The notes below the pieces were generated by a model. It saw only the letters and a list, made by a program, of their open reading frames with translations, was not told where the DNA came from and did not search any database. A stretch of 40,000 nucleotides of DNA from an uncultured Chloroflexia bacterium (lineage in GTDB: Bacteria; Chloroflexota; Ktedonobacteria; Ktedonobacterales; JADMIN01), in assembly GCA_963826075.1 (NCBI GenBank), contig CAWGVQ010000007.1:318858-358857 (forward strand). Direction: 5' to 3'. Of this stretch, positions 2,257-16,680 are shown in pieces; positions within the stretch are counted from its first letter, which is position 1; each line of letters starts with the position of its first letter. Position numbers and translations under genes: made by a program.

Positions 2257-2432
2257 GTAGCTTGCTGTGCAAGCCCTGAATTTAACGGGGTTTGTGGTTA
2301 TTTTGCCCTGATCTGGGAGTGCTACCTGGTAACCAGTTACTTTTCAGTATACGCCCGCAACCTTTCAACAAGCAGGTAGACATTACCAGTGCAAAGCAAC
2401 CTAACGATAATCAGAAAGGAACCGGGTGAACC

Positions 2433-2888
2433 ATGAATTACTTCCAAATTACCGCGAAGGTCGAAGAAGTGAACGAGTCTTCGTACACGGTGCAGTCAAC
2501 GGGTGAGATCGTCACCAAAGTGCAGCTCTCGCTGGTCGTTCCCAGCATGCACGATCGAATATTGTGCGAGCTACCGCTAGACAAGTCTCCAAAAGCGGAT
2601 ATCCTCGACCAGTGGGAATTAGACGAGTCCTGGGTGGTGGTCTCAGCCGAAGGCATGCGGGCGTTGGCCTTTGAGCGCAGCAACGCCCGCGCTGGAGAGA
2701 AACCGGTAGGTGCGCTGGTCGTCTTCCAGGGAGTTGAGGCACGCGAGGCGACCGCCGACGAGCGCAAGGAATTGCAGCAAGCCCGAAAAGCTCAGAAGGT
2801 CCAAGCCAAACAGCGGAGGGCCGCTCGCCAGGCAGAGAAGAAGACCCCGAAAGATGCTGCACCTACAGCTACCCAGCACTCCGCCTAG
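2433..2888 (+). CDS. hypothetical protein with a Lys/Arg-rich C-terminal tail (possible nucleic-acid binding)
   Basis: 151-aa ORF preceded by AAAGGAA 12 nt upstream. The C-terminal tail is KELQQARKAQKVQAKQRRAARQAEKK. I recognise no family. Confidence 0.6.
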   Translation: MNYFQITAKVEEVNESSYTVQSTGEIVTKVQLSLVVPSMHDRILCELPLDKSPKADILDQWELDESWVVVSAEGMRALAFERSNARAGEKPVGALVVFQGVEAREATADERKELQQARKAQKVQAKQRRAARQAEKKTPKDAAPTATQHSA

Positions 2889-3427
2889 ATGTCGCTCTGT
2901 TGTCGGTTGACGTAAAAAAGCGGCCCCGGCTCGAGCAGGCGATGGACAATCAATGGGACAAAGGCAATGATGACCAGTGGGACTAGCTGCGGAAGAGGGC
3001 GCCAGATAACCGCCTCAAGGACACAAAAGAGCGACAGCCATACGTTTGCCCATGTCCTAGTCCACCTGAACAAGCGGGGTCGTAGTGATAGCACGATGAT
3101 ACGCGTCGACGGCAGAGGCCTCCGGGCTTGCAATATGCCAATCAGCGCGGTATCTGCAAAAAGAACTGCCAGCGAGCCAACGGTCACTCGCGAGAGAAAG
3201 AAGGCTAGGTACAAGGGCTGCCTGTCTGAGTAGTTCGGCTCAGCCATGACACACGCAAGTGCACCAATCAGACTCGTGATGGTGATGGCCAAACAGATGA
3301 CTGCAACCCACACGCGGACGCCCATCCAACACCGACCACCAGGACGTATGAGTGTTGGCCCATCAGGTTGCTGGAGCATGACGCTACGCACTCCCTTCGG
3401 TCTCTCACGAGCTAGTTCGTCGGGCAA
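2885..3427 (-). CDS. hypothetical multi-pass membrane protein
   Basis: 180-aa ORF with a TTG start and AGGTGA just upstream. It has about 4 hydrophobic segments. Its stop overlaps the stop of 2433..2888 in the tetranucleotide CTAG (2885-2888). Confidence 0.5.
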   Translation of the reverse strand: MPDELARERPKGVRSVMLQQPDGPTLIRPGGRCWMGVRVWVAVICLAITITSLIGALACVMAEPNYSDRQPLYLAFFLSRVTVGSLAVLFADTALIGILQARRPLPSTRIIVLSLRPRLFRWTRTWANVWLSLFCVLEAVIWRPLPQLVPLVIIAFVPLIVHRLLEPGPLFYVNRQQSDI

Positions 3428-3467
3428 GTTTCACCTGACTATCAGTATACCCGCCAAGGCAACGGCA

Positions 3468-3485
3468 GTGTGAATGGGGTCACAC
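3468..3485. promoter_or_regulatory. perfect palindrome GTGTGA-N6-TCACAC (CRP/FNR-type half sites)
   Basis: The sequence gtgtgaatggggtcacac lies in the 99-bp divergent intergenic region between 2885..3427(-) and 3527..4468(+). Confidence 0.45.
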
Positions 3486-3526
3486 CACTGGCGGCGATAA
3501 TCCCGAGCTGAAAGGAGAGGATACAC

Positions 3527-4468
3527 ATGGCACGAATCACACATACGGCGAGCGTCGGCCCTGCAAGCCAGGCACACATTTCTGTGGTCGATCGGCTCGA
3601 ATATTTCCTGCGGTCGCGAGCATCGAAGGTCGTTGTGCTGGCGCTGGTTGCCAACACGATGGTCGCCCAGCTGCTCTACAACTCTGCCGGCCAGCTGGTG
3701 CTCGGGGATGGCGTCTTGCTGGGCTATCTCATCATCTCGGCATGCTGCTCGACGGTGGCGTTTGCCCTCTTCGAGGTGAGCACCATCTTTCAACTCCACG
3801 ACCTGATGAGCTTGGACAGCTCCATCAAGACCGAGATTGGCGCGGAGACGCTCATCAAACGGGGCTACTTTGTTTTAGGCGTCTCCTCGGTGATCAACTT
3901 CCTCTCGGTGCTCTACTTCTTGGCACTGGCCTGGCACAGCACCACCGGACATTCTGCTGCGTTCCCGCTGGATAACCTGCCCTCGCCCTGGAACTGGCTC
4001 TACTATGCGGTCCATGCCAGCGCCTACACCGCGGTCTTGTTCCTGGCAGGCATCTTCGGAGAGCGGCCCAAGAGTGGCAAAGAGGTGATTCTGGCCACCC
4101 AGCGGGACTTGGAGCAGCAAGCGCTGGAACGCTGGCGAATGCAGAAGGAAGCACAGATTGAGGACATGATGCACCGAGGAATCCCACTCGGTGCCGTGGC
4201 GGCGGCGCTGGCCAGCCCTGAGACCGCCGAGCGGATTGCCGTCTTGGAAGCCGCTACGACGGGCACCATGTCTGCCCTTGATGCCGCTCGGCTCAACGTC
4301 CAGCGGGCTGGGCAGGATTTGACATTGCTTGATGGGCTGCGCGCGGTCGGGGAGGCTCTGCCAGCGCACGATACTCGATCGGCGAATACCGATGAGGAGT
4401 TCGAAGAGCCGGAGAAGGAGGTAGCCGTCAATGGGAAGAGCCCTTTGCCCCTGGCTCGCCGCCGGTAG
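3527..4468 (+). CDS. hypothetical membrane protein: N-terminal ~4 TM segments, C-terminal Ala/Glu-rich helical region
   Basis: 313-aa ORF with a strong RBS (AAAGGAGAGG) 6 nt upstream of the ATG. Hydrophobic segments fall within residues ~35-190. Confidence 0.65.
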   Translation: MARITHTASVGPASQAHISVVDRLEYFLRSRASKVVVLALVANTMVAQLLYNSAGQLVLGDGVLLGYLIISACCSTVAFALFEVSTIFQLHDLMSLDSSIKTEIGAETLIKRGYFVLGVSSVINFLSVLYFLALAWHSTTGHSAAFPLDNLPSPWNWLYYAVHASAYTAVLFLAGIFGERPKSGKEVILATQRDLEQQALERWRMQKEAQIEDMMHRGIPLGAVAAALASPETAERIAVLEAATTGTMSALDAARLNVQRAGQDLTLLDGLRAVGEALPAHDTRSANTDEEFEEPEKEVAVNGKSPLPLARRR

Positions 4469-4494
4469 CTCCAGCAGGACTTCCTCCGGCGGCA

Positions 4495-4644
4495 ATGCAG
4501 CTGGTCGTGGCGTTGACCGATCAGCTGCCACAGGCACAGGGGCGCACCTGGACGGAGGCGGACTATGCCATTCGTGATGCACGCCTGCAGGCACTGGGCC
4601 TCGTCTCAGCCTACAGAACGCAGATGGAACCGGCAAAAACATGA
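4495..4644 (+). CDS. possible small ORF (49 aa), below the ORF-track cutoff
   Basis: My translation is MQLVVALTDQLPQAQGRTWTEADYAIRDARLQALGLVSAYRTQMEPAKT. It fills the gap between 4468 and 4646. The RBS is weak. Confidence 0.25.
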   Translation: MQLVVALTDQLPQAQGRTWTEADYAIRDARLQALGLVSAYRTQMEPAKT

Positions 4645-4645
4645 C

Positions 4646-5074
4646 TCACGGCAGGCTCGGGCCCTGCAGAAACTGGACAGGTGTTCGGATGGGGATGCTG
4701 TCATACCGTCCCATGGAGAGCAAGTCACTATCCCCACTGACGATGACGCTCGCGCCGCCACTCACTGCCAGCTCGAGGACAAAATTGTCTTTGGGGTCGC
4801 GCACCACGTGCAGTTGCACGGTGATCGTAGTCAATGTTCCTACCGTGGTGAGCAGGTTGACGAACTGTACGCGCTGGGACGGGCTGGCATACTGGTCGAA
4901 CTTTGGGTACTGCAGCACGCTATACAGCTCGCGGAGCAACGGCAGCGAGATGAGGAGTTTGCCGTGGTCAAGAGCGAAGTCAACTGCCCGTCGAGATGTC
5001 GAGGTCGGAATGAGGAAGGCGCTGATGAGCACGTTGGTGTCAAAGACGGCGCGCACCTCAGACCTGAGCGTCAT
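4646..5074 (-). CDS. PIN-domain toxin (TIGR00305 / PIN_3-like)
   Basis: 142 aa. It has AVFDTNVLISAF near the N-terminus and RDPKDNFVLELAVSGGASVIVSGDSDLL near the C-terminus, the acidic-residue pattern of this PIN family. Confidence 0.85.
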   Translation of the reverse strand: MTLRSEVRAVFDTNVLISAFLIPTSTSRRAVDFALDHGKLLISLPLLRELYSVLQYPKFDQYASPSQRVQFVNLLTTVGTLTTITVQLHVVRDPKDNFVLELAVSGGASVIVSGDSDLLSMGRYDSIPIRTPVQFLQGPSLP

Positions 5075-5328
5075 CGTGGCTCGTTCGTGGGGTGCGCTTC
5101 CTCGGCCTCCCGCAGAAGTTCCTGCAGCCGCTCTTCGGTCAAGCCGCAGTCTTCAGCCTGCTTGCCGACGGTGTCCATCAGCTCACGCAAGGACTGCCGG
5201 CTCGTTGCGGCCTCCAAGAGGTGCAGACTCACCAGCGCTTCCAGTTTGCGCCGCATCTCAGGAGTTGCCTCCTTGAAGACACGCGCTGCTGCTTCATCCA
5301 ATTCCAATGTGACGGGTTCCGTCGCCAT
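5071..5328 (-). CDS. cognate antitoxin (small acidic helical protein)
   Basis: 85-aa ORF immediately upstream of the PIN gene, with an ATGA start/stop overlap at 5071-5074. Confidence 0.7.
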   Translation of the reverse strand: MATEPVTLELDEAAARVFKEATPEMRRKLEALVSLHLLEAATSRQSLRELMDTVGKQAEDCGLTEERLQELLREAEEAHPTNEPR

Positions 5329-5680
5329 ACGCTTTGCTCTCTCTCACCACTCTACCAATCCACCTCCAGTATGCCACATCGGGATGCTGCGGTGGGCGCC
5401 GAGTCCAGGCCTCCGGTGCGGTGCGGCCAGCCCCGACCGGCTCGAGACCCGGCAAAGCGGCCGCGACGAGGGGCCCGGTCAAGACTGCCGCGCAGCGGCA
5501 CCCCGGAGCGGAGCGGAGGGGTTTAGCCTTGACTGGGAGCGGAGCGGCGCTAGGGTCGAAGAGAGTCGGGCGGGGCTGGGGCCGAGCCACAGAGGCAGCA
5601 CCTCGGCCACGGCAGCGCAGAGGGCGCCGAGGGAGGCAGCAAGGCGGCCCCGTTCCATTCTGGAGAAAGGAGGCAACACC

Positions 5681-5962
5681 ATGGGCAAGAGAACGATGAG
5701 GAGCCTAGTGCGGCAGGGGCGACTCCCTGGCCTGCAAGCTGATCCTACCTACCTGGATCTGGCTGGCGATGCGATGCTCTCGGGGATGACCCGAGACCAA
5801 GTCATTGAGCAGCTGCGCCAGCGCATCGAGCGCGATCTGGACTATCTAGACTATCGCAAGGCAACCGGGAAGCACACGCGCTACGACGAGGAGGTGACCC
5901 AGGACCTGCGCGCCCTGGCGCTCGCCGCCGTCCTGCTGGGAGATGACCACCAGCAGAAGTAA
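5681..5962 (+). CDS. hypothetical small protein upstream of rep
   Basis: This is the 3' part of the long shadow ORF 4565..5962. The ATG at 5681 is preceded by GGAGAAAGGAGG. The 93-aa sequence is non-repetitive and protein-like. Confidence 0.55.
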   Translation: MGKRTMRSLVRQGRLPGLQADPTYLDLAGDAMLSGMTRDQVIEQLRQRIERDLDYLDYRKATGKHTRYDEEVTQDLRALALAAVLLGDDHQQK

Positions 5963-5971
5963 GATCGAGGT

Positions 5972-5992
5972 CCGCCGGCACGATGCCGGCGG
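5972..5992 (+). other. GC-rich stem-loop (9-bp perfect stem ccgccggca / tgccggcgg, 3-nt loop)
   Basis: Read directly from the sequence. It lies 9 nt after the stop of 5681..5962 and 81 nt before the rep start. No T-tract follows it. Confidence 0.5.
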
Positions 5993-6073
5993 GCCGAGGG
6001 GCCGAACTGGGTAACACGGCCCCCAAGAATACATGAGTGAGCTGGACGATGACTGAAAGCGAGAAATAGAGCT

Positions 6074-7648
6074 ATGCCACTTGAGGAACACCTTCGGGCA
6101 CTCACCCAGTTCGTGGACACGTGCCCAACAATACATCGCCCGCGTGAGGCACACGAGGGTTGGGTGGACGACGCCCTCCGGATCCTCATGGCTGGGGTAG
6201 ATACCGTGCATCTGAGCTTTGACGTCGAAGTGAGTGAAGCGATGTTCCAGTACCTCGTAGGGGAGCAGCAGCAGGCGCGGCTGGCTCAGCAGCAGCGCAA
6301 CGCTGCCTACTGCTCCGAATGGCTCAATGCCCGTGTCGCACCTACCGGCGTCAAAGGCTATGCGATCCTCATCGATCGGGAGGAGTGGTCGATCAAGGTG
6401 GCCTACGACAATCCCACCCGTCCACCGATCTTTGTTGAGCTCCGTTCTCTTGCCTTGCACACTCATCCGGAAAAGGTGCTGGGGGCTTGTGAAGATGCCT
6501 GCACCTTCATTCGGGACGTCCTGTTGGCTGACCGCTCGGACGAGTTGCGTACTCAGGTGAAGCTGGGCAACGAAAAGCTCTCGCGACTGGATCTGCACGT
6601 GGATTACCAGGGGGGCTGGCATCCGGATCTCTCGGAGCAGGAACGCCGCCAGTTCATCAAACCGGGACACGCCAAACTGAATGGCCACCTGGAGGGAGAT
6701 CGCTGCACGGGCTACGTTCTGGGCAAACGACGGATTGTCGCCCGGATCTACAACAAGACGATTCAGGCCAAAGAGCACCAACTGGACTGGTACTTCACCT
6801 TGCTCGAGCAGCAAGCTGGAGACCGCTACAACCCCGATCAGGATGTGTGGCGCCTGGAGTTTGAGCTCAAACGGGAGGGAGTGCAAGGGTTTTGTCTCTA
6901 CACCAAACCGGAGGTGAGTGACCCAGAGGATATCATTGACGCGGAGCTCGAGGCCGAAGACTTGCCTACCACCGGAACGATCCAGAAGGCACTCTACTGG
7001 GCACCGCATCTGATCCACTATCTGATGACGCGCTGGTTCCGTCTGGTTGTCCCAAGCGAGGATACCAACCGGGCAAGATGGGCAACCCATCCTACCTGGC
7101 TTGCGCTCAAAGAGGGCTTTGCTGCCGCGATGACGGCCCCAGCGCTCTCCCAGGAACAAAGCCTGCTGGTGCGTGCGCAGCGGCACACAGGCTATAGTCG
7201 GCTCATCAATCGGATGGCGGTGGGCATTGCCAGTGCTGCCGAATTGCTCCTGGACACGGATCCGTGCTCGGTTCTGCCAGCGTTTGTCGCGAACGTGGAG
7301 CAGCTGGCGGCGCAGATTGTCGCCAAACAGGAGGAGAAGCGCAGGCAACTGAAGGGGGAATCTCCCTATGACGCCCGAAGACGGCGCCATTTTCAGGACG
7401 TGCAGCATCTCGCGGCGATGGCACTTGGCGTCTTGACCCAAGCAGGGGTACTCAAGGCGGAGTTGCCGCGAGTGGCTTGTATTGGGGATGTGCTAGCTGT
7501 TCTGGAACCTGATCTCGAGCAAATCGCCAATGCCAAAGGGGGCATCGGGCAGGTGCTCTACGACAAGTGGTGCAAAACCTATAAAGTCGTGCCACCACGC
7601 GGAATGTTCACCATGCATGTGCCTCGGCAGAAGGCCCAGGCGGCCTGA
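6074..7648 (+). CDS. Rep_trans-family rolling-circle replication initiator / MOB_T-like relaxase
   Basis: 524 aa. Ordered motifs are LSRLDLHVDYQGG, TGYVLGKRRIVARIYNKTIQAKE and VWRLEFELKREG. These match the Rep_trans (PF02486) pattern RxDxxxD ... G ... R.YdK ... RxExEl as I remember it. Confidence 0.8.
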   Translation: MPLEEHLRALTQFVDTCPTIHRPREAHEGWVDDALRILMAGVDTVHLSFDVEVSEAMFQYLVGEQQQARLAQQQRNAAYCSEWLNARVAPTGVKGYAILIDREEWSIKVAYDNPTRPPIFVELRSLALHTHPEKVLGACEDACTFIRDVLLADRSDELRTQVKLGNEKLSRLDLHVDYQGGWHPDLSEQERRQFIKPGHAKLNGHLEGDRCTGYVLGKRRIVARIYNKTIQAKEHQLDWYFTLLEQQAGDRYNPDQDVWRLEFELKREGVQGFCLYTKPEVSDPEDIIDAELEAEDLPTTGTIQKALYWAPHLIHYLMTRWFRLVVPSEDTNRARWATHPTWLALKEGFAAAMTAPALSQEQSLLVRAQRHTGYSRLINRMAVGIASAAELLLDTDPCSVLPAFVANVEQLAAQIVAKQEEKRRQLKGESPYDARRRRHFQDVQHLAAMALGVLTQAGVLKAELPRVACIGDVLAVLEPDLEQIANAKGGIGQVLYDKWCKTYKVVPPRGMFTMHVPRQKAQAA

Positions 7649-7789
7649 CAACAGGTTATGCTACAGCCACTGTATAAGGTCGTCTGATTTTGTAAGATCT
7701 GTGTTTATAATGGAAGCTAGGTACTGTGACCCAACAAAGGATGAAATCCGCTAACTTGTGCTGTAAAATTACCCGCTCAACCAACGGGA

Positions 7790-7867
7790 ATGGCATGGTT
7801 TGTGATCGCTGATCTCACAGACGCCAAGCACATCCCGCAGGAATTGGAGCGAAGTGCTCATCATTTC
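7790..7867 (+). pseudogene. short remnant resembling the C-terminal half of a bacterial TIR-domain protein
   Basis: AWFVIADLTDAKHIPQELERSAHHF resembles a motif I recall from cyanobacterial and Chloroflexi TIR proteins (RFVIADLTDxxSIPQEL..IVPH). An in-frame stop lies 16 codons upstream, so no N-terminal TIR half is present. Confidence 0.3.
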
Positions 7868-9150
7868 GCGTTGTTGGCAGAGCAGCCAGTCAGCCAGCAA
7901 GATGAAGCTGAGCCCGCCATCAGTGTGGAGTCGATGAGCACAAGCCGCGAAGTCGGCTGCCGATCATTCGAGTTGGTTATCGAGAACGTCGTCAGGAACT
8001 TCCCCTGATTTCCTAAGGGATACACCACCTGCCCTATGCCATTAGGCTCTAACGTATCATTCGGATCGAGACCAACGGCATTGGCATACGCGGCTTTCGT
8101 CACATAGTTCACCAGATTCAATGGCAAGAGCTGCTGGGGATCATCACCCATGGAGGTCACTAGCCAATCACCTGACACCGCCAGAATGCCGCCCATCGTC
8201 GATGGCGACAGGCCGGTGCCCCTCACGGTACCAGTGGCCACATCCTGGATCACATAATCCCCTGATGGGTCCGTTGCGGGCGGAGTAATCGTCAGGATGT
8301 CGTGAGGTCCGACCCAGTCCAGCGGTATGCCTATTACCGCGGGGAGCTGTATTGGGAGCTGGAGCACCTGGTTGCCCACCAGCATCATGATCTGCATCTT
8401 GCCCAGCAGCAGGAACAATATCTGCCCATCGGGAGAGTTGAAGACCGTTCCTTGCGGTGCCTCAGGGTCGTCGTCGCTGGCCAGTTGATAGAGGAATAGC
8501 GGAACGCCACCGGCGGGGTCGACAGCATACAGCTGGCTGCCATATCCGCCGGTAGTGTAGATGGCTCGATTATTCTGCCAGCCCATAAAGACGCCCTGTG
8601 GTGCCAGTATCCGCGCTGGTCCTCCGGTGCGCGGGACGATCTCGGCACCATTGTTATCTCCATTGCTCGTCATAACAGTACCGCCGATCCATCGGCCATC
8701 TTGAGAGAGCTCAGGGTAGCTGATATCCAGCCCGGTAGACTGGACTCGCCCCTGCCGGTCCATAATGAGGAGTAAGCCAGAACTCCCAGAGATAAAGAGC
8801 CCAGACGAGTCCGGAAGCCAGCTAATAGGAGGCCCAGCCCCAAGTTCGCCTGCTGGGAGAGTATACGGGGTACCTTGCTCCTGTCCCGCCAGCGTATACA
8901 GCTTGATCGTTGAGCCATATTCCGCCGCGAGCAAGGTAGCATCAGGCGACGGGTACAGGTCCCCCGTTGGTGGAATAGGTAGTGTCTCAGTGCTGGACTG
9001 AGGAGTTGCCGTCGGCCGAAGCACAACGGGAGTCGCGGTAGGGGTAGTCACCCTCGCTGAGGAGGGGGCGCAGGCCGCCATGAATCCGCAGAGCAGGAAA
9101 CTGGCGAGCGCCACCATCAGCACTGGTGAGCGATAGCCCGTATCGAACAT
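7861..9150 (-). CDS. secreted lipoprotein, TolB-like beta-propeller
   Basis: I place the start at the ATG at 9150 (AAGGAGG 6 nt upstream), not the ORF-track start at 9324. The signal peptide and lipobox read VLMVALASFLLCGFMAAC. A Thr/Pro linker follows, then repeats such as ISWLPDSSGLFISG and ELSQDGRWIGG. Confidence 0.75.
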   Translation of the reverse strand: MFDTGYRSPVLMVALASFLLCGFMAACAPSSARVTTPTATPVVLRPTATPQSSTETLPIPPTGDLYPSPDATLLAAEYGSTIKLYTLAGQEQGTPYTLPAGELGAGPPISWLPDSSGLFISGSSGLLLIMDRQGRVQSTGLDISYPELSQDGRWIGGTVMTSNGDNNGAEIVPRTGGPARILAPQGVFMGWQNNRAIYTTGGYGSQLYAVDPAGGVPLFLYQLASDDDPEAPQGTVFNSPDGQILFLLLGKMQIMMLVGNQVLQLPIQLPAVIGIPLDWVGPHDILTITPPATDPSGDYVIQDVATGTVRGTGLSPSTMGGILAVSGDWLVTSMGDDPQQLLPLNLVNYVTKAAYANAVGLDPNDTLEPNGIGQVVYPLGNQGKFLTTFSITNSNDRQPTSRLVLIDSTLMAGSASSCWLTGCSANNAK

Positions 9151-9434
9151 GTGGCCTCCTTGGTGATGTGTCCGCTCGCTAAAATTAGCGGCTATCCTGA
9201 CCGGTGATAAAGCCAGATTGGCCTGGCGACACGGAAGGAGCGGTGTGCGTGGTTGACTGCTATGATCGTCTGCACTTGGTTTCTGGTAGGGTGTAACTCC
9301 TAGTAAGAGATGAGCACATCCCACTGTGATAGTGAATAGCAGGTGCGAATAGTCTACTGGAGAAAGCAGCAGGGCGCAATACCTAGTGATCCGTTTCCAG
9401 CTGGCAACTACGTATGAGAGGGCCTCCCTACCAC

Positions 9435-11081
9435 TTACCCCGGAATAACGCTCCAGGCGCCGTTGATGTAGTGGAGCATAACCGGCACCACACTCGTTCC
9501 AGACTGCATGTCTGCTGCAGCGAACCCCTCGGAGTCAGAGACGAAGGCTACTGCGCCTATTGTCACGATGTGGTCCGGTATCGCTGTCCACGTCCAAACG
9601 CCGTTGCGGTAATGCGCAACCTGATAACTAGAGCTATTGCCATTGAGCCAAGGTGAAGAAAGCCCAGGAACAAAGGGAAAGGAACTGCCGGGGAACGCCC
9701 ATACCTCGTTTGGCGACAGGGCTGCGATCCTGAAAAGATCATGGTTATTCGTCTGCTGATTTACGTAGTTCCCGACGTTTTCACGAGTCAAGTTGGTGCC
9801 ATCGTAGTGCAGCACCAGCGGTGCGGTTCCGTTACCGCTGGCATCCGTGAAAGCGTAGGAACCGGCCACCCACACGTCAGTCGGTGAGGTCATCGAGACG
9901 GCATACATGATGGGGTACTGCACACCAATCTGTGTCCCTGACCACGTCGTCCACATGCCATTCTGGTAGTGGGCCACAGCAAAGTCGCTACTGGTGCCGG
10001 TTCCGGTGCCATAGCCTACGATCCAGCAATCGTCCGGCGTGAGAGCCGCGATGTCTGTGAATATGAGCGCTCCCGACGCATCGAAGGTGAGCGGCACCGA
10101 TATCCAGGAACCATTCTGAAAGTGCAGTAGTGTATACGCATACTTTGCCGTATACGGATTGATGTGCGACTTTCCGCCATCGATCAGCATCCACCCGTCA
10201 CCCGACGAAGTCATATGGACTGTTATACCGGTAACTATGCCAGTGGTGTTGGCAGTGGCTGGGAGAGACACTTGCAGCCATTGGCCGTCCGTGTAGTGTA
10301 ACGCCAGTGGCTTGGCATTAGATGTAGTTCCTACCGCCCAGCCATCAGTTGCGGATACCATGGACACGCTGAGCAACTCGGCGTTGGGAATACCCACATC
10401 AACTGGCTGCCACTGGCAATTCTGGAAGTGCAACAGCAGTGTAGCAGTAGGCACGACAGCGCCTTGTTGGGTGATAGTCTGTATCCAGCCAACCGCCCAG
10501 CCATCACGCGGCGAGCTCATACTGATGTCTTGGATGAGCGCATTGGGAGGGATGGTTGCGCCCAAAGCGCTAGAAGGACAGGCAGAAGGCGTTGGTGTGC
10601 TACTGGTGGCCACTGCCGGGGTATGGCCGTGGCGAAGCTGTACGCCGAAGTATCCAAAGAGCGCAGCACTCAGGGCGACGAGTAAGACGGCGGCCAGCAC
10701 AGCGAGCGCTGGGCGATGGGATGGGCGTTGTGGTGGCCGTGCTACACTAGTAGCCTGCTGGGAGGCAAGAGCACGAGAATCCGTGTCATATTCTACAACA
10801 CCGGCCTTTGTCCTCTGAGACACCGTCAGTGGGGATCGCGAAGGAAGCTGGTCGCGAAGGGCGAGCCAGGCATCAGCAGCGTGGGAATCGGGTGGAATGC
10901 GGTTGTCCTCGTCAGCCAGCGTAGTGGCGATGGTGCCCCATGCCGCTGCCGCGCGACGGCAGGCCGCGCAACCAGCAAGATGACGCTCTACAGCCGACCC
11001 CTCAGCCAGCGAGAGGCAGCCAGCAACATGCCAGGGGAGGCGCTCGCGGCAGGCGGAACATGTCAGGTCGTCAGGCATCAT
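9435..11081 (-). CDS. anti-sigma factor: zf-HC2 (ZAS) domain, one TM segment, seven-repeat extracytoplasmic propeller-like domain
   Basis: The N-terminus contains HLAGCAACRR (HxxxCxxC). The TM segment is ALAVLAAVLLVALSAALFGYFGV. Seven repeats each carry a (D/E)xW(A/I)(V/F)G-type motif and an (L/A)H(Y/F)xNGxW motif. Confidence 0.85.
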   Translation of the reverse strand: MMPDDLTCSACRERLPWHVAGCLSLAEGSAVERHLAGCAACRRAAAAWGTIATTLADEDNRIPPDSHAADAWLALRDQLPSRSPLTVSQRTKAGVVEYDTDSRALASQQATSVARPPQRPSHRPALAVLAAVLLVALSAALFGYFGVQLRHGHTPAVATSSTPTPSACPSSALGATIPPNALIQDISMSSPRDGWAVGWIQTITQQGAVVPTATLLLHFQNCQWQPVDVGIPNAELLSVSMVSATDGWAVGTTSNAKPLALHYTDGQWLQVSLPATANTTGIVTGITVHMTSSGDGWMLIDGGKSHINPYTAKYAYTLLHFQNGSWISVPLTFDASGALIFTDIAALTPDDCWIVGYGTGTGTSSDFAVAHYQNGMWTTWSGTQIGVQYPIMYAVSMTSPTDVWVAGSYAFTDASGNGTAPLVLHYDGTNLTRENVGNYVNQQTNNHDLFRIAALSPNEVWAFPGSSFPFVPGLSSPWLNGNSSSYQVAHYRNGVWTWTAIPDHIVTIGAVAFVSDSEGFAAADMQSGTSVVPVMLHYINGAWSVIPG

Positions 11082-11652
11082 GACGTAACTCCTTCACCGG
11101 AGTAGCGTACAGCTCACGCCACAATGCCTTGCGGGCGTAGTTGATCCGGCTTTTGACGGTGCCAGCGGGCACGTCGAGAATCTGGGCGGCTTCGTCGAGT
11201 GAGAAGCCGTGCTGGAAGACGAGCGCCAGAACTTCACGGTGTTTAGGCGAGAGGTGGTTTAGAGCCTCGTCCAGGGCCATGCGATCGAGCACAATGTCGT
11301 CGCAGGCCGCGTATGTCGCACCAGGCTGGACCAGGGTATCATCCTCGTTGTCGGAAGAGTCGGGCGGTTGGCTGCCGAGATGGCGGAGGCGACGGCGCCT
11401 GGTGCCAAGCGCCACGTAACGGGCGATCTGGTAGAGCCAGGTGGACACTCGGGCCTCAGCGCGATAGCCGCTCGCGGTACGCCAGACGGCCAGGAAGACG
11501 TCTTGCAGGGCCTCCTCGACACCAGTAGAGTCGCCGTCGAGCTGGTGCCAGAGGTAGCGGCGCAGGCGCGGGCGATAGGCGAGGTAGAGCTGGTGCAGCG
11601 CCTCCTCGTTGCCGGTTGCAACCTGGGCTAGTAGCTGTTGGTCATCCAGCAC
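11071..11652 (-). CDS. ECF (group 4) sigma-70 factor
   Basis: Region 2 reads YRPRLRRYLWHQL...DVFLAVW. Region 4 reads LSPKHREVLALVFQHGFSLDEAAQILDVPAGTVKSRINYARKAL. The start is uncertain: GTG at 11652 (193 aa) is preferred over the TTG at 11766 given by the ORF track. It overlaps the anti-sigma gene start by 11 nt. Confidence 0.85.
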   Translation of the reverse strand: MLDDQQLLAQVATGNEEALHQLYLAYRPRLRRYLWHQLDGDSTGVEEALQDVFLAVWRTASGYRAEARVSTWLYQIARYVALGTRRRRLRHLGSQPPDSSDNEDDTLVQPGATYAACDDIVLDRMALDEALNHLSPKHREVLALVFQHGFSLDEAAQILDVPAGTVKSRINYARKALWRELYATPVKELRHDA

Positions 11653-12018
11653 AGGCGTTCCCCATCGGCAAGTACTCCCGTCCTCACGATACAGTCCGGC
11701 GCTGCATCTGTCGCTGTCACAAGTGTTGACGAAGAATAGGTGTGTCGATAGGCCCGAATGGTTCAAAGTGCTTCGCTAGTAGGACTGAAAAGGGTCTGAT
11801 ACGGTTTACGCGTGAGGTCTTGGAGAATGGAACCATGGCAAGCGTGACGCAATTGAAGCCGCTCAATGAATCGCTGAAGGGTGATACTGGGCTTGATCTC
11901 TCAACGATCCGTCCCTCGCGGTCAACGAAGTGATGGTTTAGGAGACGAGGAGAAGGCGAGGCCGCGTTTGACGTGCTTGCATGTGCCAGAGCACTCCATC
12001 AGCTTGGGGCGACGTCAG

Positions 12019-12627
12019 TCATTCCGTAGCAATGCACTGCCCTATGCGCTCAAGGAGCTCATCGGCGGATAGGGAGATGCTCCCCAGTCCAATGTTCATT
12101 TTGACCCGTTGCTTGCCTCCGTAGGTGGAAACTCTGTTGGGCTTGAGGATAAAGGAAATGGTGAGCGACGTGATTCGATACAGGCCACCTACCCCCAACA
12201 TTCGCGTCGTGGTGTACGCAGCGATATGGTCCACATCCCTCCAATAGATGGTGCGGAACATACCTGGAAACGGATGATACACCAAACTCGACGGAGTCAC
12301 GTGCAAAACTGGCTGGGATGTGAACGTCCAATACAAGCCAAGCGGCACGGGGGTGCCACAGAGGAGTACCACGCAGACGAAGACTATGGTTGCAGCTGGT
12401 TGCTGATACTGCCACGGATGCCAGCTGACGGTTGGGGGTGTCCAGACAAAATACACCAGGAACGCAACGACCACGACACCGGCAAAGATCATGGCTGGCA
12501 GAAATGGCTTCCAGCGCGTCGCATACACGCGGACATCATGTGGTGTTTGTACCACCATGGGAGGCCTCGATTCCTCTACAGAGATGTGCAGTACCTGCAG
12601 CTGTACACCTTCCTCCTGGTAGGACAT
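12019..12627 (-). CDS. hypothetical membrane protein (2 TM segments plus a C-terminal globular domain)
   Basis: I place the start at the ATG at 12627 (MSYQEEGVQLQ...). The ORF-track extension to 12750 runs through the IS transposase 3' end in another frame. Confidence 0.55.
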   Translation of the reverse strand: MSYQEEGVQLQVLHISVEESRPPMVVQTPHDVRVYATRWKPFLPAMIFAGVVVVAFLVYFVWTPPTVSWHPWQYQQPAATIVFVCVVLLCGTPVPLGLYWTFTSQPVLHVTPSSLVYHPFPGMFRTIYWRDVDHIAAYTTTRMLGVGGLYRITSLTISFILKPNRVSTYGGKQRVKMNIGLGSISLSADELLERIGQCIATE

Positions 12628-13252
12628 CACGACGAGCCGGCGTGCTCGTGGTGACGCGGAGGCCCTTGGCGTTTCTTCAGCCGCTGCGGCCACCAGGGAA
12701 ACAGCGTCGCTGAGCGGATCAGTGCTGGATGGCGCTGCAGCACCACACACCGCGCGAGCTGCGCCTCTTCGAGTTCATTGATATCGGCAAAACACTGATT
12801 GACCAGGACCTCGTTGCTGAACTGCCACAGGTGCTCGGCCGGCTGCAACTCCGATGAGTAGCCCGGCAGGAACAACAGATGCACATGCTCGGGGACCCGC
12901 AGGTGCAGACTGGTGTGCCAGCCGGCACGGTCGAGGATCAGCACGATTTCTTTCTTCGGGCCTGCTGCCACCGTCCGGGCAAAGGCTGCCAGTTCCGCCT
13001 CAAAAAGCGGAATCGAAACGCTGGTGGCCAGGTGCCAGACGGTCCGACCCGAGGCGGGATGGACAAAGGCCACCAGATAGCGCCACACAAAGCGGTGGCG
13101 CACCGGCGCCAGCGGGCGCTGACCAATCGGTGCCCAGACCCGACGCAGCAGCGGTTTCAAGCCTATGCGATGCTCGTCCATGGCCCAGACCTCGACCTTG
13201 GCCTGCGGAAAGGCTGTGGCCACCTGCCTTAGCAAGGGACGGACGTTTTTTT
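12627..13252 (-). CDS. IS630-family transposase, catalytic DDE part (orfB, reached by a -1 shift at the A7 run 13246-13252)
   Basis: Signatures are VWAMDEHRIGLKP, VLILDRAGWH and GYSSELQPAEHLW. The frame is -1 relative to orfA. The junction would read ...TAFKK|NVRPLLRQV. Confidence 0.78.
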
Positions 13253-13744
13253 GAAGGCGGTCTGCTCCTCGGGATCGGCTAGGGCATGCTGCGGTCGCGG
13301 CACTTGTTGGCTGTGCTTGAGGCGCTGCAAGTAGTCCCACCCACGCTGGACCCGCACCGGTCGGCCTAGCTTCGCGGAAATCCAAGCGGCCACCGCCCGG
13401 GCGGTCCACTGCTTGCTGTAGTCGGGTGCGGGTCCAGCAATCGCTTGACGCAGTTCCTCTTGGAGCTCTACCGAGAGCATTGGGGCCGGGCGCCAGGAAG
13501 TCGTGTGTTGCCGGTTGCGCATGCCAGCTGGACCTTGCTCGTTATAGCGCCGCGCGATCTGCCCAATCCAATAGCGGGAGTAGCTGGTGCTATCGGCAAT
13601 CTGCTTGGCGGTTTGGCTGCGGGAAAGCAGCCACAGAATCTGCCACCAGCTCCGTTCATGCGGCTCTTTGGCGGACCGGTAGCGCTCTTCGAGTTGTTCG
13701 GTCGTCAAATGCGGTTGAAGATTGATGTGTCTTGGCATGCCCAC
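13229..13744 (-). CDS. IS630-family transposase, N-terminal DNA-binding part (orfA)
   Basis: 171 aa. WWQILWLLSRSQTAKQIADSTSYSRYWIGQIARRYNEQG is typical of the IS630 HTH region. It ends just after an A7 run. Confidence 0.8.
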   Translation of the reverse strand: MGMPRHINLQPHLTTEQLEERYRSAKEPHERSWWQILWLLSRSQTAKQIADSTSYSRYWIGQIARRYNEQGPAGMRNRQHTTSWRPAPMLSVELQEELRQAIAGPAPDYSKQWTARAVAAWISAKLGRPVRVQRGWDYLQRLKHSQQVPRPQHALADPEEQTAFKKTSVPC

Positions 13745-13949
13745 ATTCTACAATATCCCGAACGGAAACCGTATGAGGAGGCACAGACAATGCGCTCTAA
13801 GGCAGACCGATACCCAACAGTTGCACCTACCTCGTTGATGCTGTACAATCTGCTCACGCGAGAAGTGCCCATTTTAACAGGCTTTGCCGCATGCGAGCAG
13901 CGAAATGTGGGTACCTGCCTTCCAAGCAGATCTTCTTAATGAACTGGCG

Positions 13950-14489
13950 CTACCAGATGGAAGGTTCAATGAAATCTGCCGCTGGTCGCCGGAGCGCTTG
14001 GGTGATCCGCATGGCCAGCCGCATGCCGGTCGCAAACTTGATAGTACGGAGGTCCATGAGCTGGGAGGGCGTGCAGTGCAACCTTTCCGCGACCTGCCGC
14101 CAGGTCTCGTCTCGCTCGGTGCGGGCGCAATTGAGCGCAGCGTAGAGTTTCGCTAGGTTCCATCGCAGCCGGTGCACCACATCAGTCACAGGGAGGGGGA
14201 CGCCGGTTGTGCCAGACCGTGGCTGGACCACAAACATCTCAGGGGGGCAACCCAGCCATCTTAGCAGAAACAAGGCGTGCTGGCAGGAGCCTCCGCCCTC
14301 TCCTATGTGCCTGATCGTCGAAGGACTGATCGGATGATCTCCAAGCTTGTCATTGAGTACCTGTGACTGATTCCACACATCATGAGCGAGTATGTCCCAG
14401 CTTAGGGCTTCTTGACGGCGTCGCTCGTCAGTGGCAGTGAAGAACGCCTGGGCATCGAAGCCGCCAGGATGGGTCACGCCTCCCGCCAT
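13950..14489 (-). CDS. hypothetical DNA-binding protein with two tandem HTH-like modules (candidate element regulator)
   Basis: 179 aa. There are two internally similar segments. One runs ...RRRQEALSWDILAHDV...ISPSTIRHI...ALFLLRWLGCPPEMFV. The other runs ...RTERDETWRQVAERLHCTPSQLMDL...AMRITQALRRPAADFI. Confidence 0.55.
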   Translation of the reverse strand: MAGGVTHPGGFDAQAFFTATDERRRQEALSWDILAHDVWNQSQVLNDKLGDHPISPSTIRHIGEGGGSCQHALFLLRWLGCPPEMFVVQPRSGTTGVPLPVTDVVHRLRWNLAKLYAALNCARTERDETWRQVAERLHCTPSQLMDLRTIKFATGMRLAMRITQALRRPAADFIEPSIW

Positions 14490-14614
14490 AACCTGCCTCC
14501 TGTGTTGGGTATTGCCACCTTCACGTTGTGCATTTCAAGAACAGCATTGGTTTTGGGAGTGCACTGACCGGCCATATATCGCTTATACCATTACATATTT
14601 CACAGCCCAACGGC

Positions 14615-14785
14615 TTAAGCAGGCATGAGCGCCTGCACAACCAGCTCAACATCCTCTTTGCTGATGAGCTTCTTACGGCTGTCGCTAGGATCTCCAATGA
14701 ACTTGATCTTTCCCACAATTTGAAGTTGTGTCATTCTCTTCTCGACAATAAATCGCCCGACCCCCAAACGTTGCGATCTTTGCAG
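14615..14785 (-). pseudogene. truncated or interrupted paralog of the excisionase-like gene 14811..15017
   Basis: My translation is (TAA at 14786-14788) LQRSQRLGVGRFIVEKRMTQLQIVGKIKFIGDPSDSRKKLISKEDVELVVQALMPA*. It aligns along its length to the neighbour's QRAGVGRFVAERKMNEMEESGQIRFVDDPRDIRKKLISREHVDAIVTALTPG. It is absent from the ORF track. Confidence 0.6.
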
Positions 14786-14810
14786 TTAGGCTCCGATCCC
14801 AATCAAGAAT

Positions 14811-15017
14811 TCAGCCCGGGGTAAGGGCCGTCACAATTGCGTCAACATGCTCTCTGCTTATCAGCTTCTTGCGAATATCACGTGGATCGTCTACAAAGCG
14901 GATCTGTCCTGACTCTTCCATCTCATTCATTTTGCGTTCGGCAACAAATCTGCCCACTCCGGCTCTTTGCATGACTTCCATGATTGCCTGGGTTTTACCA
15001 ATGTACTGTGTTGCCAT
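14811..15017 (-). CDS. small DNA-binding protein, excisionase / recombination-directionality-factor candidate
   Basis: 68 aa from the ATG at 15017, with GGAGG 9 nt upstream. It is divergent from the integrase. The size and the pattern (helix, then GQIRF, then basic RKKLIS) resemble Xis/MerR-type winged helices. Confidence 0.55.
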   Translation of the reverse strand: MATQYIGKTQAIMEVMQRAGVGRFVAERKMNEMEESGQIRFVDDPRDIRKKLISREHVDAIVTALTPG

Positions 15018-15050
15018 TTGCGTTAACCTCCAAAGCGTGCCCTTTGTCGC

Positions 15051-15056
15051 ATTATA
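15051..15056 (-). promoter_or_regulatory. consensus -10 hexamer (TATAAT on the minus strand) for the xis-like gene
   Basis: attata on the plus strand lies 34 nt upstream of the ATG at 15017. The -35 region is weak. Confidence 0.35.
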
Positions 15057-15148
15057 CAGCATGCATTTCCTTTATGCTCATGTCTACTCAGTTTCTACTG
15101 GGTTTACTAATGTTAGCGCAGTTTAGCGCAGATTTCCTCTTTAAGTAC

Positions 15149-15176
15149 TTGACATGGGAATATCAGCGTGTATAAT
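15149..15176 (+). promoter_or_regulatory. integrase promoter TTGACA-N16-TATAAT
   Basis: Both hexamers match the sigma-70 consensus exactly (15149-15154 and 15171-15176). GGAGG at 15184-15188 and the ATG at 15195 follow. Confidence 0.6.
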
Positions 15177-15194
15177 ACAAATTGGAGGGTAGCT

Positions 15195-16217
15195 ATGAAG
15201 ATGGCAGCCGCAATCCGGGGTTTTTTGATGGACTGGGAGCTGCGTGAGCATTCGCCAAACACGATTCGACTCTATCGGTCGTGTTTGAACGTATTTGCTC
15301 GCTGGCTCGAAGAACAGGGCATTACGACGGTGGAGGACGTCACGATTGCCCATCTACGCGCATTTATGCTCTATACCCAACAACGCCCAGTCGATGCAGT
15401 GAACCCGAGCCATCCCACCGCAACAGATGGGCGGACGCTCAGCACAGCAACCTTGCAATCCTACGTGAAGACCATCAAAGTACTGTTTCATTGGCTCGTA
15501 GACGAGGAGGTGATTACGCGCAATCCAGCGCTCCGCTTACATAAGCCCGTCGAGGCAAGGCGGGTGGTGGTGACATTCTCGCATCAGCACCTCAACGCCA
15601 TGTTTGAGGCCTGCGATCTCACCAACTCCCTGGGCTTTCGTGACTACGTCTTGATGCTCGTCCTACTCGATACCGGCCTTCGGGTGAGCGAACTCTGCGG
15701 CATCCAGCTGGATGATGTCCATGAGGCCTACATCAAGGTCTTGGGCAAGGGGCGTAAAGAGCGCGAGGTTGGCGTCAGTCCAACCACCGCCAAGTTCATC
15801 TGGAAATACATCCACCTGCACCGCGTGACAGCGGATGACGCGGTAACGGCCCTGTTCACAAACTTTGCGGGCCACGGACTGCGACCCTCCGGGGTCGAAA
15901 AGCTCATCAGGCGGGTGAAAGATGCCGCTGGCATTACCGACATTCCGGTGACGGCGCACAAGTTCCGTCATACTTTCGCCCGCACGTGGCTGGAACGGGG
16001 CGGTGAGGTCTACAGCCTCTCGAGGCTCATGGGCCACTCGAGTGTGAAGGTCACCGAAATCTATCTGGAAGACTTCAAGAGTCGGCAGGCCCGTCTACAG
16101 CACGCGAAGTTCTCGCCAATCAGCCAACTGAAGCTCCGCCAGAAGGGGCGCGGCCGCCATACCTACAAGCGCCAGCCGCAATTTGGGGATAATGATGAGA
16201 AGCAGGAGAACGGCTAA
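15195..16217 (+). CDS. tyrosine recombinase / phage-type integrase
   Basis: The N-terminal SAM-like domain reads NTIRLYRSCLNVFARWL. The catalytic signature is GLRVSEL ... HKFRHTFA ... LMGHSSVKVTEIY (R, HxxR, H, Y). I use the ATG at 15195 because the ORF-track GTG at 15168 immediately abuts and runs through the -10 hexamer. Confidence 0.92.
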   Translation: MKMAAAIRGFLMDWELREHSPNTIRLYRSCLNVFARWLEEQGITTVEDVTIAHLRAFMLYTQQRPVDAVNPSHPTATDGRTLSTATLQSYVKTIKVLFHWLVDEEVITRNPALRLHKPVEARRVVVTFSHQHLNAMFEACDLTNSLGFRDYVLMLVLLDTGLRVSELCGIQLDDVHEAYIKVLGKGRKEREVGVSPTTAKFIWKYIHLHRVTADDAVTALFTNFAGHGLRPSGVEKLIRRVKDAAGITDIPVTAHKFRHTFARTWLERGGEVYSLSRLMGHSSVKVTEIYLEDFKSRQARLQHAKFSPISQLKLRQKGRGRHTYKRQPQFGDNDEKQENG

Positions 16218-16334
16218 GCGGCGTTGGGGTCTGTTACCAAAAGGTAATTGCCCAATTCCGCCCACGAAGGGCCTCCAGTGGGCTGTAACCTTACCTATTT
16301 TAGACGGTTTTGAGAGGGGGTGAGGGCAGTCGCC

Positions 16335-16430
16335 GGGGAATGAAAAACCCAGGCGACAAACGGGTTTGTGACCTGGGTGTCTACTGGACTGCGGGCTCCT
16401 CGGAGGGGATTCGAACCTCTAACCTTGCGG
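16335..16430 (-). repeat. proximal att repeat: element-derived terminator copy plus the 3' 35 nt of the functional tRNA-Asn
   Basis: Partner of 2161-2256. The 41-bp perfect core is 16390-16430. Confidence 0.88.
16343..16377 (-). terminator. rho-independent terminator downstream of tRNA-Asn
   Basis: On the minus strand there is a hairpin cccaggtcacaaa/tttgtcgcctggg followed by TTTTT. Confidence 0.6.
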
Positions 16431-16467
16431 TTAACAGCCGCCTGCTCTACCGTTGAGCTACCGAGGA
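16396..16467 (-). tRNA. tRNA-Asn (anticodon GTT)
   Basis: Folded by hand: acceptor TCCTCGG/CCGAGGA, D arm GCTC-AACGGTA-GAGC, anticodon loop CTGTTAA, T loop TTCGAAT. The T stem has one A-C mismatch and there is a G-A at 27:43. CCA is not encoded. Confidence 0.85.
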
Positions 16468-16680
16468 ATAGGTAGTTACTGGATGGGTCGACTCGCCAAT
16501 GCATCGATCGATACCACTCAGCTACAACCGGGTGAAGTATACACGCTATCGTCCATGCCGTCAAGATTCGTGCCGATCTACTGGTGCCGACCTATAGGTA
16601 CAGATCAAGCGCATTTGGCACCGCCGCCCTCTTCGAGAACATCCGGACCGAGACCGGTACGGCATCATGGAATTGGCAGC

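Follow-up and report, generated by a model that had tools for sequence, protein, structure and literature searches.

We analysed a 40,000-nucleotide stretch of DNA from an uncultured Chloroflexia bacterium of the order Ktedonobacterales (contig CAWGVQ010000007.1, positions 318,858 to 358,857 of the forward strand), which we refer to as the window and in whose coordinates all its features are given. On its plus strand the window carries a gene, rep, at 6074-7648, which starts with ATG and encodes a 524-residue protein, Rep. Between rep and an upstream gene for a small 93-residue protein, p93 (5681-5962, plus strand), lie two GC-rich hairpins, HP1 (5972-5992) and HP2 (5998-6023). An earlier note on this DNA, made from the letters alone, had placed both genes and the 9-bp hairpin HP1 exactly here, and had read the region as an integrative element with an initiator of Rep_trans type. 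We found that these genes belong to a 14.2-kb integrative element (~2257-16430) in the 3' end of a tRNA-Asn gene, that Rep is predicted to be a divergent tyrosine nickase of the Rep_trans superfamily, and that the two hairpins form a conserved pair in which HP2 is the likelier candidate nick site.

Profile searches gave little indication of the nature of Rep. At E ≤ 1, hmmscan returned no Pfam family at all, including PF02486, the Rep_trans model, for which membership requires a gathering score of 29.6 bits; NCBIfam and PADLOC yielded nothing useful. The earlier note had itself named the lack of a significant Rep_trans hit as grounds for giving up its reading, and taken literally this result goes against it. 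Since there is no PF02486 match, Rep can be linked to Rep_trans at the superfamily level only, and it was fold comparison and profile-profile alignment that made this link. An AlphaFold (AF2) model of Rep, built from a 36-sequence alignment, had a predicted local distance difference test score (pLDDT) above 90 over residues ~32-270. Foldseek comparison of the model with PDB gave a sole match at E < 0.001, the rolling-circle initiator RepSTK1 (4cij_C; E 1.1e-9, probability 1.0, TM-score 0.58 on the target), and TATA-binding proteins (TBP) came next in the list. The TBP fold is common to Rep_trans proteins (PMC13107129), and the Rep model shows the two-lobed TBP-like catalytic fold of RepSTK1 and RepDE. 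Profile-profile alignment pointed in the same direction. The alignment A3, which combines the Rep family with 37 more distant relatives and gives a broad alignment of 46 sequences, was matched by hhalign to PF02486-labelled RepC/RepD at E 4.2e-6 and 87% probability over residues 168-270 of the window Rep. This superposes SRLDLHVD of Rep on TRLDLAFD of RepC/RepD, ARIYNK on IRIYNK and WRLEFELKRE on WRVEIELKRD, and sets Y226 on Y191, the catalytic tyrosine of these 314-residue RepC/RepD-type proteins.

Rep_trans proteins are characterised by five motifs in a fixed order: N' (D), I (RxD), II (T/SxY/ExG), III (YxKxxE) and IV (W/LxRxE). Rep carries them in this order as D43, SR171LD173, T212GY214..G217, RIY226NK228 and VW259R260LE262, motif II having one residue extra relative to the consensus. 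All except motif II are invariant across the broad alignment, and the columns invariant down to ~20% identity are D43, R171, D173, D177, G213, G217, R224, Y226, K228, R260, E262, W321 and W342. The acidic triad and the YxK tyrosine are essential by mutagenesis in RepD and in the MOBT relaxase RelSt3 (PMC5714925, PMC6499999). By fold, profile-profile alignment and all the catalytic motifs, Rep thus belongs to the Rep_trans superfamily, even though it fails membership of PF02486.

The earlier note had assigned the motifs to the first ~290 residues of Rep and had left a C-terminal half of ~230 residues unassigned. The motifs it named are present and in order, but the conserved core (from residue ~32) runs on to ~350 and includes a motif, LWxYxTxxWLxLxxPxxDxxRxRWP, of which W321, R335 and W342 are kept in the broad family. 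A subfamily-specific C-terminal part does exist, but it comprises about 175 residues (350-524). This extension is specific to the Ktedonobacteria subfamily, is predicted to be all-helical (pLDDT 50-73) and has a conserved AxxKGG..DKWCKxYK motif at its end; no winged helix-turn-helix (wHTH) was called in it in the AF2 model. At the other end, residues 1-31 are disordered in the model and the first strand begins at residue 36, and no N-terminal helix-turn-helix (HTH) was found, either in the model or as a family match.

Homologues of Rep at E ≤ 1e-3 numbered 47, mostly of 495-546 residues and alignable over the whole length, and 35 full-length homologues align with the 524-residue protein end to end. 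The Rep sequence itself is present in public collections, and the single homologue with a source name is from a Ktedonobacteraceae. In genome scans the close family was confined to metagenome-assembled genomes (MAGs) of Ktedonobacterales/Chloroflexia, except for a frameshifted copy in a MAG labelled as a beta-proteobacterium (locus L029; homologous loci are cited by L numbers). A profile search at E ≤ 1e-3 extended the family to 2,868 cluster representatives. The more distant members include proteins of 344-448 residues from Nitrosomonas, Polaromonas, Pseudidiomarina, Brocadia, Nitrospirota, Planctomycetota and Brevibacillus, some of them labelled 'Replication initiation factor' in UniRef/NCBI records. 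Of nine tested against PF02486, one matched, at a score below the Pfam threshold (L033; E 0.052, 13.6 bits). Single MAGs hold three to nine copies of Rep, many broken into several frames; examples are contigs CAVQGK010000001.1 (L004, L007, L035) and CAWJCH010000014.1 (L006, L023, L036) and several CAVTFE contigs (L017-L032). The presence of multiple broken copies per MAG suggests repeated integration followed by decay. In the window, the Rep stop codon is followed by a short AT-rich non-coding stretch (7649-7860), beyond which the cargo genes are oppositely oriented, and this stretch may be the junction of the core module and the cargo.

HP1 consists of a perfect 9-bp GC-rich stem, CCGCCGGCA-CGA-TGCCGGCGG, extending to 12 bp over 5969-5995 if G-T pairs are counted. 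It begins 10 nt past the TAA stop codon of p93, has no T-tract and was not called by a terminator scan. Taken alone it is not above chance: dinucleotide shuffles contain on average 1.25 perfect hairpins with stems of 9 bp or more, and the window has two; HP1 owes its significance to its conservation in homologues and to nothing else. The other such hairpin, at 35364-35392, has a 10-bp stem (CCAGCAGAGC..GCTCTGCTGG). HP2 has the form GGGGCCG-AACTGGGTAACA-CGGCCCC, with a 7-bp stem and a 12-nt loop, 26 bp in all. As single-stranded DNA (ssDNA), the segment 5960-6040 folds into exactly HP1 and HP2 (-24.5 kcal/mol, z -4.98). An Rfam scan of 5300-6300 gave no match.

Homologous loci show the same arrangement upstream of Rep, a large GC-rich HP1 followed within 0-6 nt by HP2. 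This two-hairpin element was present in 26 genome loci, window included, and in 49 of the 68 metagenome loci with upstream sequence (from a set of 80 loci, none of which entered the covariance model described below); all 49 copies were on the Rep strand and 44 were beside the start. Two loci reached through p151, another gene of the element, instead of Rep also contained it. The hairpins lie 40-100 nt before the Rep start codon, always on the coding strand. A few loci (L015, at 720-804; L129/L130, L144 and L147) have the two-hairpin element 0.6-1.2 kb upstream of Rep instead of ~60 nt, and here the origin and rep seem to have been separated by the insertion of an extra ORF.

The two hairpins vary in different ways. 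HP1 has 23 distinct arm sequences in 25 loci, with perfect pairing over 8-19 bp in most, and its loop is AGGAC in 12 of the 25; the window copy has a shorter stem and the loop CGA. The HP2 loop is nearly invariant (AACTGGGTAACA in 11/25 loci), and its stem alternates between GGGCCG/CGGCCC and GGGGCG/CGCCCC among loci. A simple HP2-loop pattern matched 27 times in 1.39 Mb of fetched DNA, with 25 of the matches just upstream of Rep on the same strand. A covariance model of the two-hairpin element, built from 23 locus sequences, matched each Ktedonobacteria locus strongly once, and always on the strand of Rep; there was no further match in the window and none in the loci of distant relatives. On both locus sets, none of 500 shuffles reached the covariation score and slid controls were two- to six-fold lower or worse, and five of the six inner HP1 pairs show compensatory changes. 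The earlier note had proposed HP1 as the nick-site or origin hairpin, a claim to be dropped if the hairpin were absent from homologues. It is found in homologous loci and the claim survives to that extent, but HP1 is the variable member of the pair, and it is HP2 that carries the nick-like loop.

The nick of Rep_trans and MOBT systems is made within the loop of a GC-rich hairpin, at CT'AA (PMC9371924), and (C/A)TAA is the conserved nic in the supplement of that paper. The HP2 loop ends in GTAACA. With its 7+12+7 geometry HP2 matches the published description of IR1 of ICESt3, where 12 nt are enclosed by a perfect, GC-rich inverted repeat of 7 bp (26 bp in total); a second, separate inverted repeat of ICESt3 is the binding site. 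In pT181, the nick hairpin IRII is conserved and has a divergent specificity repeat, IRIII, next to it (PMC9371924). Among the more distant relatives of Rep, 30 of 46 loci have a hairpin near the rep 5' end with a loop ending in (C/G/A)TAACA, and such loops occur beside relatives from Proteobacteria, Brocadia, Nitrospirota, Planctomycetota, Brevibacillus and Dormiibacterota. They include a GGGTGC-gccgccTAGTAACAca-GCACCC hairpin in proteobacteria, Brocadia and others, a cccctATAACA loop in Brevibacillus and ccCTAACAga in a Dormiibacterota MAG. Since the loop motif is found with the catalytic domain in several phyla and is similar to the canonical nic, HP2 is best read as the cleavage site and, on sequence grounds, is a likelier candidate than HP1. 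We infer that the nick most likely falls at GGT'AACA, between T6012 and A6013. HP2 would then be either a double-strand origin (dso) or an origin of transfer (oriT). HP1 could by analogy be the Rep recognition site, equivalent to IRIII or IR2 and perhaps read by the C-terminal domain; it could also be a single-strand origin, or a terminator of the upstream gene. The conservation of its AGGAC loop speaks in favour of a site recognised by a protein.

In proteobacterial, Brocadia and related loci (L040, at 9955-9982; L045, L063 and others) the rep ORF as read here contains the conserved hairpin, GGGTGC-N16(..TAGTAACACA)-GCACCC, in its 5' part, and the hairpin sequence is translated there into a conserved G-x-P-x-S/C-N-T-x-P peptide. 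These distant relatives either have their origin within the gene, as does pT181, whose origin is situated inside repC, or have their true start codon further downstream.

The borders of the element are defined by direct repeats of ~96 bp. The left repeat, attL (2161-2256), is a displaced copy of the 3' part of tRNA-Asn and its downstream flank. The right repeat, attR (16335-16430, minus strand), overlaps the 3' part of the tRNA-Asn gene itself (16393-16468, minus strand), which ARAGORN calls as intact and whose 3' 38 nt and flank are those repeated at 2161-2256. The repeats share an identical 41-bp core (2216-2256 and 16390-16430). An intact tyrosine integrase gene (15168-16217, plus strand; PF00589 at 7e-30, with an N-terminal SAM-like domain) adjoins the complete tRNA, and a phosphoribosyl-pyrophosphate synthetase gene lies outside the left repeat. 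The description of the region as an integrative element is thus borne out, with integrase and att repeats delimiting it. Divergent from the integrase gene is that for a small protein, p83 (14811-15062, minus strand), which has no Pfam family match and is a candidate excisionase or regulator; a p83 homologue stands beside an integrase homologue in L029, L031, L035 and L164. The set of p151, mem313, in some cases p93, origin and Rep recurs in homologous loci, with integrase and p83 on one or the other side.

The first gene of this set, p151 (2433-2888, plus strand), encodes a protein predicted to have an oligonucleotide-binding (OB) fold like that of single-stranded DNA-binding protein (SSB), followed by a basic C-terminal helix. 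The AF2 model had a pLDDT of 82; Foldseek E-values were weak (best 1.7e-3), and all 50 PDB matches listed were OB-fold or OB-containing proteins, mostly SSB, PriB and RPA. The protein is therefore a candidate ssDNA-binding or auxiliary protein of the replication module. It has 472 homologues, of which the few with a source name are from Ktedonobacterales or Chloroflexi, and in most loci its gene is 2-3 kb upstream of Rep. Two membrane protein genes follow: mem180 (2885-3427, minus strand), for a 180-residue protein with 3-4 hydrophobic segments, and mem313 (3527-4468, plus strand), for a conserved protein with N-terminal transmembrane helices and a charged C-terminal part. Neither has a match in Pfam, PHROG or PADLOC, so that mem313, the most conserved gene of the module, is without a family. 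Between elements in which Rep identity is only ~40-50%, the mem313 and p151 proteins share 70-85% identity (L002, L004, L007, L019, L098, L164).

The p93 gene had been described in the earlier note as a leader gene with a strong ribosome-binding site. It is a real gene, starting 8 nt after the Shine-Dalgarno sequence AAAGGAGG, and an identical 93-residue product is present in public gene calls; homologues 35-63% identical occur upstream of Rep in about a dozen loci. However, it is directly upstream of the hairpins in 4/75 loci only, and we rejected it as an obligatory leader. It is also embedded in frame within a 465-residue ORF (4565-5962), which we rejected as a gene, as this GC-rich read-through artefact has a low-complexity translation and overlaps a toxin gene on the opposite strand. 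This toxin, a 142-residue PIN-domain protein (4646-5074, minus strand; PF13470 at 1.4e-15, TIGR00305 at 3.5e-21), has a 4-nt overlap with an 85-residue ORF (5071-5328, minus strand) that from the ORF layout is a candidate antitoxin, and the two are probably a VapBC-like addiction pair. The pair (4646-5328) occupies a variable gap between mem313 and p93.

Beyond Rep, within the att boundaries, is a cargo or regulatory block on the minus strand (7861-11766), which encodes a 487-residue secreted protein and, by Pfam, a zf-HC2 anti-sigma factor with a long C-terminal domain (9435-11081) and an extracytoplasmic function (ECF) sigma factor (11071-11766). Weak homologues of the ECF or the anti-sigma factor are found downstream of Rep in L017, L025, L027 and L089. 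An IS630-like transposase that has inserted into the element (12627-13744, minus strand; PF13358, PF13592, PF13565) is split into overlapping HTH (13229-13744) and DDE_3 (12627-13409) frames, which fits programmed frameshifting or decay. The element also holds genes for a 243-residue membrane protein and for p179. In L002, a TIR/TPR/FGE-sulfatase-domain protein, an RVT_1 reverse transcriptase and bAvd are encoded right after the Rep homologue (11639-15160), in what looks like a diversity-generating retroelement.

We searched the element for a motor that could transfer its DNA. In agreement with the earlier note, Pfam scans and a Walker A scan identified no coupling protein, FtsK-like translocase or type IV secretion system (T4SS) ATPase in it. 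No sizeable ORF contains a Walker A motif. Within 10 kb of more than 100 Rep homologues, the P-loop genes were by Pfam ABC transporters or STAND regulators, and no FtsK/TraB, VirB4, VirD4 or T4SS gene was present; the absence of such an ATPase is therefore a property of the family and not of this copy alone. A hidden FtsK-, VirB4-, VirD4- or Zot-like ATPase was ruled out by the Walker A scan together with Pfam on the neighbouring P-loop ORFs. Since no nucleoside triphosphatase (NTPase) is encoded, the element would export no DNA by any known conjugative or packaging motor. It has neither the coupling protein and T4SS encoded together by MOBT-type integrative and conjugative elements (ICEs), nor the FtsK/SpoIIIE-like TraB translocase of actinomycete ICEs (AICEs), nor the pI/Zot-type ATPase and small coat proteins of inoviruses, with no PHROG structural match among the five core-module proteins scanned. 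It does have its own integrase and att sites with no mating apparatus, one of the two marks of an integrative and mobilizable element (IME), the other being transfer that depends on a helper conjugative element. A free plasmid or virus was also considered and rejected: none of 80 metagenome contigs had a terminal direct repeat, and the 2.9 million contigs of IMG/VR gave two weak matches only.

On balance we think it probable, if well short of certain, that the integrative element, once excised as a circle, replicates in the rolling-circle mode from a nick that Rep makes at HP2, and that p151 takes care of the displaced strand. The conserved core of the element is a DNA-processing module with five parts: p151, mem313, sometimes p93, the HP1-HP2 pair and the 524-residue Rep nickase. 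The integrase, perhaps with p83, would excise the element as a circle. Rep would bind the origin just upstream of its own gene and cut the plus strand in the HP2 loop, using Tyr226 as nucleophile and a metal held by D43, D173 and E262. The free 3'-OH would then prime rolling-circle synthesis by host enzymes while p151 coats the displaced strand, and Rep would rejoin the strand at the regenerated HP2. Such replication would make the excised form more stable, and the element would depend on a helper for its spread.

Several observations weigh against this account. As well as lacking a PF02486 match even at E ≤ 1, Rep has no sequence-level match to the Rep proteins of PDB, where phmmer with the single sequence and hmmsearch with the profile gave chance matches only, and it has Q231 where the motif III consensus has E. 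The HP2 loop reads GTAA, not CTAA, and some close relatives have GTAT or GTCT, which makes the exact nick position uncertain. On the coding strand both hairpins have a stop codon before them and the Rep start after them, a setting in which a role in RNA or as a promoter is possible. Frameshifts interrupt many of the Rep copies found in MAGs, which means that the family is partly in decay, and the metagenome contigs with their lack of terminal direct repeats give no sign of free replicons.

Comparison with characterised initiators shows both likeness and divergence. Rep is like the PF02486 rolling-circle initiators RepC/RepD (pT181/pC221) and RepSTK1 (pSTK1) in its TBP-like fold, motifs N'-IV, identical RIYNK and helical C-terminal part, and its candidate bipartite origin is organised like that of pT181, where a conserved nick hairpin, IRII, has a divergent inverted repeat, IRIII, next to it (PMC9371924). 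However, RepC, RepD and RepSTK1 have ~310 residues against the 524 of Rep, with its ~175 extra helical residues and its score below the Pfam threshold, and pT181-type Reps are found on small plasmids whereas this one is on an integrated 14-kb element. In the pT181 type the variable repeat is 3' of the nick hairpin, the origin is inside rep and the loop is CT'AATA; here the repeat is 5' of the hairpin, the origin is upstream of rep and the loop is GTAACA.

The main rival of the replication account differs from it solely in the main purpose of the nick. Rep would be mainly a MOBT-like relaxase and HP1/HP2 an oriT, and the element an IME using a co-resident conjugative apparatus, with replication as a by-product of transfer. 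A Rep_trans-type core on an integrated element is indeed what NicK (ICEBs1), RelSt3 (ICESt3) and Orf20 (Tn916) have, and these dual relaxase/initiators share with Rep the same catalytic core and the hairpin-loop architecture of its putative nick site (PMC9371924, PMC6499999). In ICESt3 the IR1 nick hairpin likewise has a 7-bp GC-rich stem and 12-nt loop and lies upstream of the gene (PMC9371924), and OB-fold auxiliary proteins accompany MOBT ICEs, ICESt3 among them, as p151 would here (PMC12614216). Streptococcal IMEs are known that resemble this element in being small and integrated, with their own integrase and att sites and a Rep_trans relaxase, and in having no coupling protein or mating apparatus (PMC7563843, PMC5704250). 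They differ from this element in having identified helper ICEs and canonical PF02486 relaxases, and the OB-fold and conserved membrane proteins are an addition here. MOBT relaxases of ICEs are marked by an N-terminal HTH fused to the PF02486 domain (PMC6499999), whereas Rep has no such HTH, is below the PF02486 threshold, comes from a Chloroflexota and not a Firmicutes host, and has no coupling protein or T4SS; as described above, no T4SS, VirD4 or FtsK-like gene was found near its homologues either. Our analysis identified no conjugative system of Ktedonobacteria that might be the helper, complete genomes not having been surveyed for one. We consider a primary role in mobilization unlikely, while taking it as a serious alternative.

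AICEs such as pSAM2 are integrated in tRNA genes of mycelial, spore-forming hosts, replicate by rolling circle after excision and are transferred by the FtsK-like TraB. The Rep of pSAM2 is of HUH type, not Rep_trans. The present element is like pSAM2-type AICEs in its tRNA integration, its mycelial, spore-forming host and its proposed rolling-circle replication after excision, and differs in the absence of TraB.

A role of the hairpins in RNA or transcription, with HP1 a T-tract-less terminator or stabilising stem and HP2 with the ATACA box downstream of it a promoter, operator or 5' leader of rep, is in our judgement quite unlikely. It would account for the constant position of the hairpins on the coding strand shortly before the start codon, for the 5-15 nt that separate the start of HP1 from a preceding stop codon in L002, L005, L016 and the window, and for the tolerance of G-U pairing in the outer part of the HP2 stem. 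Some 12 nt downstream of HP2 there is also a conserved ATAC(A) box, whose form in L003, TACAAT, resembles a -10 element, and pT181 controls repC through the structure of its leader RNA. However, neither Rfam nor terminator or promoter prediction made a call at the hairpins, and a promoter would not need a paired stem with compensatory changes. The HP2 loop motif tracks the Rep catalytic domain across phyla and in distant relatives lies inside the 5' coding part, and the conserved AGGAC loop of HP1 would be unusual for a terminator. Origin and RNA-level roles of the hairpins are in any case not mutually exclusive.

Going further than the replication account, p151, mem313, the origin and Rep might constitute a self-sufficient, NTPase-free element family of mycelial Chloroflexota, in which the membrane proteins mediate passage of rolling-circle ssDNA from cell to cell or by vesicles. 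We hold this to be very unlikely; if true, the membrane proteins would provide a means of transfer unlike conjugation by T4SS or TraB and unlike known virions.

Viral systems offer one further comparison. Rep-Arvir (DUF7845/PF25227) of archaeal pleolipoviruses and plasmids, an archaeal family with a similar bipartite origin described in 2026, also has a TBP fold unrecognised by standard sequence models, is carried by small integrative elements and has a conserved hairpin origin preceded by more variable palindromes (PMC13107129). In contrast to Rep-Arvir, Rep has no PF25227 match at E ≤ 1, no wHTH fusion and a bacterial host, and its link to Rep_trans is detectable by hhalign. Least likely of all, and in our view very improbable, is a viral nature of the element, as a prophage-like or vesicle-borne form of an unrecognised type akin to pleolipoviruses or inoviruses, with structural membrane proteins and a Rep that replicates the genome for packaging: a small tRNA-integrating element with a rolling-circle Rep, an OB-fold ssDNA-binding-like protein and membrane proteins does recall inoviruses, betapleolipovirus Rep-Arvir is structurally related to Rep_trans and has a likewise bipartite origin (PMC13107129), mem313 and p151 are far more conserved than Rep, and Rep has weak PHROG matches to phage replication initiators (including 'replication initiation protein' at 3.6e-4), but there is no morphogenesis or packaging ATPase or P-loop protein, no capsid, coat or lysis family detected by Pfam or PHROG, no circular contig among the 80 from metagenomes, and next to nothing in IMG/VR.

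We searched the literature and found no element of this kind described for Ktedonobacteria. Integrative elements with a Rep_trans-type protein are well known in Firmicutes; what differs here is the phylum, the clade beyond Pfam, the C-terminal extension and the NTPase-free module with its highly conserved membrane proteins. The 2,868 cluster representatives of the family profile search indicate that the Pfam Rep_trans model under-detects a large clade, and the (C/G/A)TAACA hairpin-loop signature, present across several phyla, is usable for origin annotation. Together with the analogy to Rep-Arvir, the locus suggests a design general to TBP-fold nickases, in which the origin is bipartite and the conserved nick hairpin has a variable palindrome next to it. 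Ktedonobacteria are actinomycete-like and rich in secondary metabolism, and few genetic tools exist for them. The work gives them a delimited integrative element with a candidate origin (5960-6040) and its putative initiator, and so a candidate replicon for a shuttle vector.

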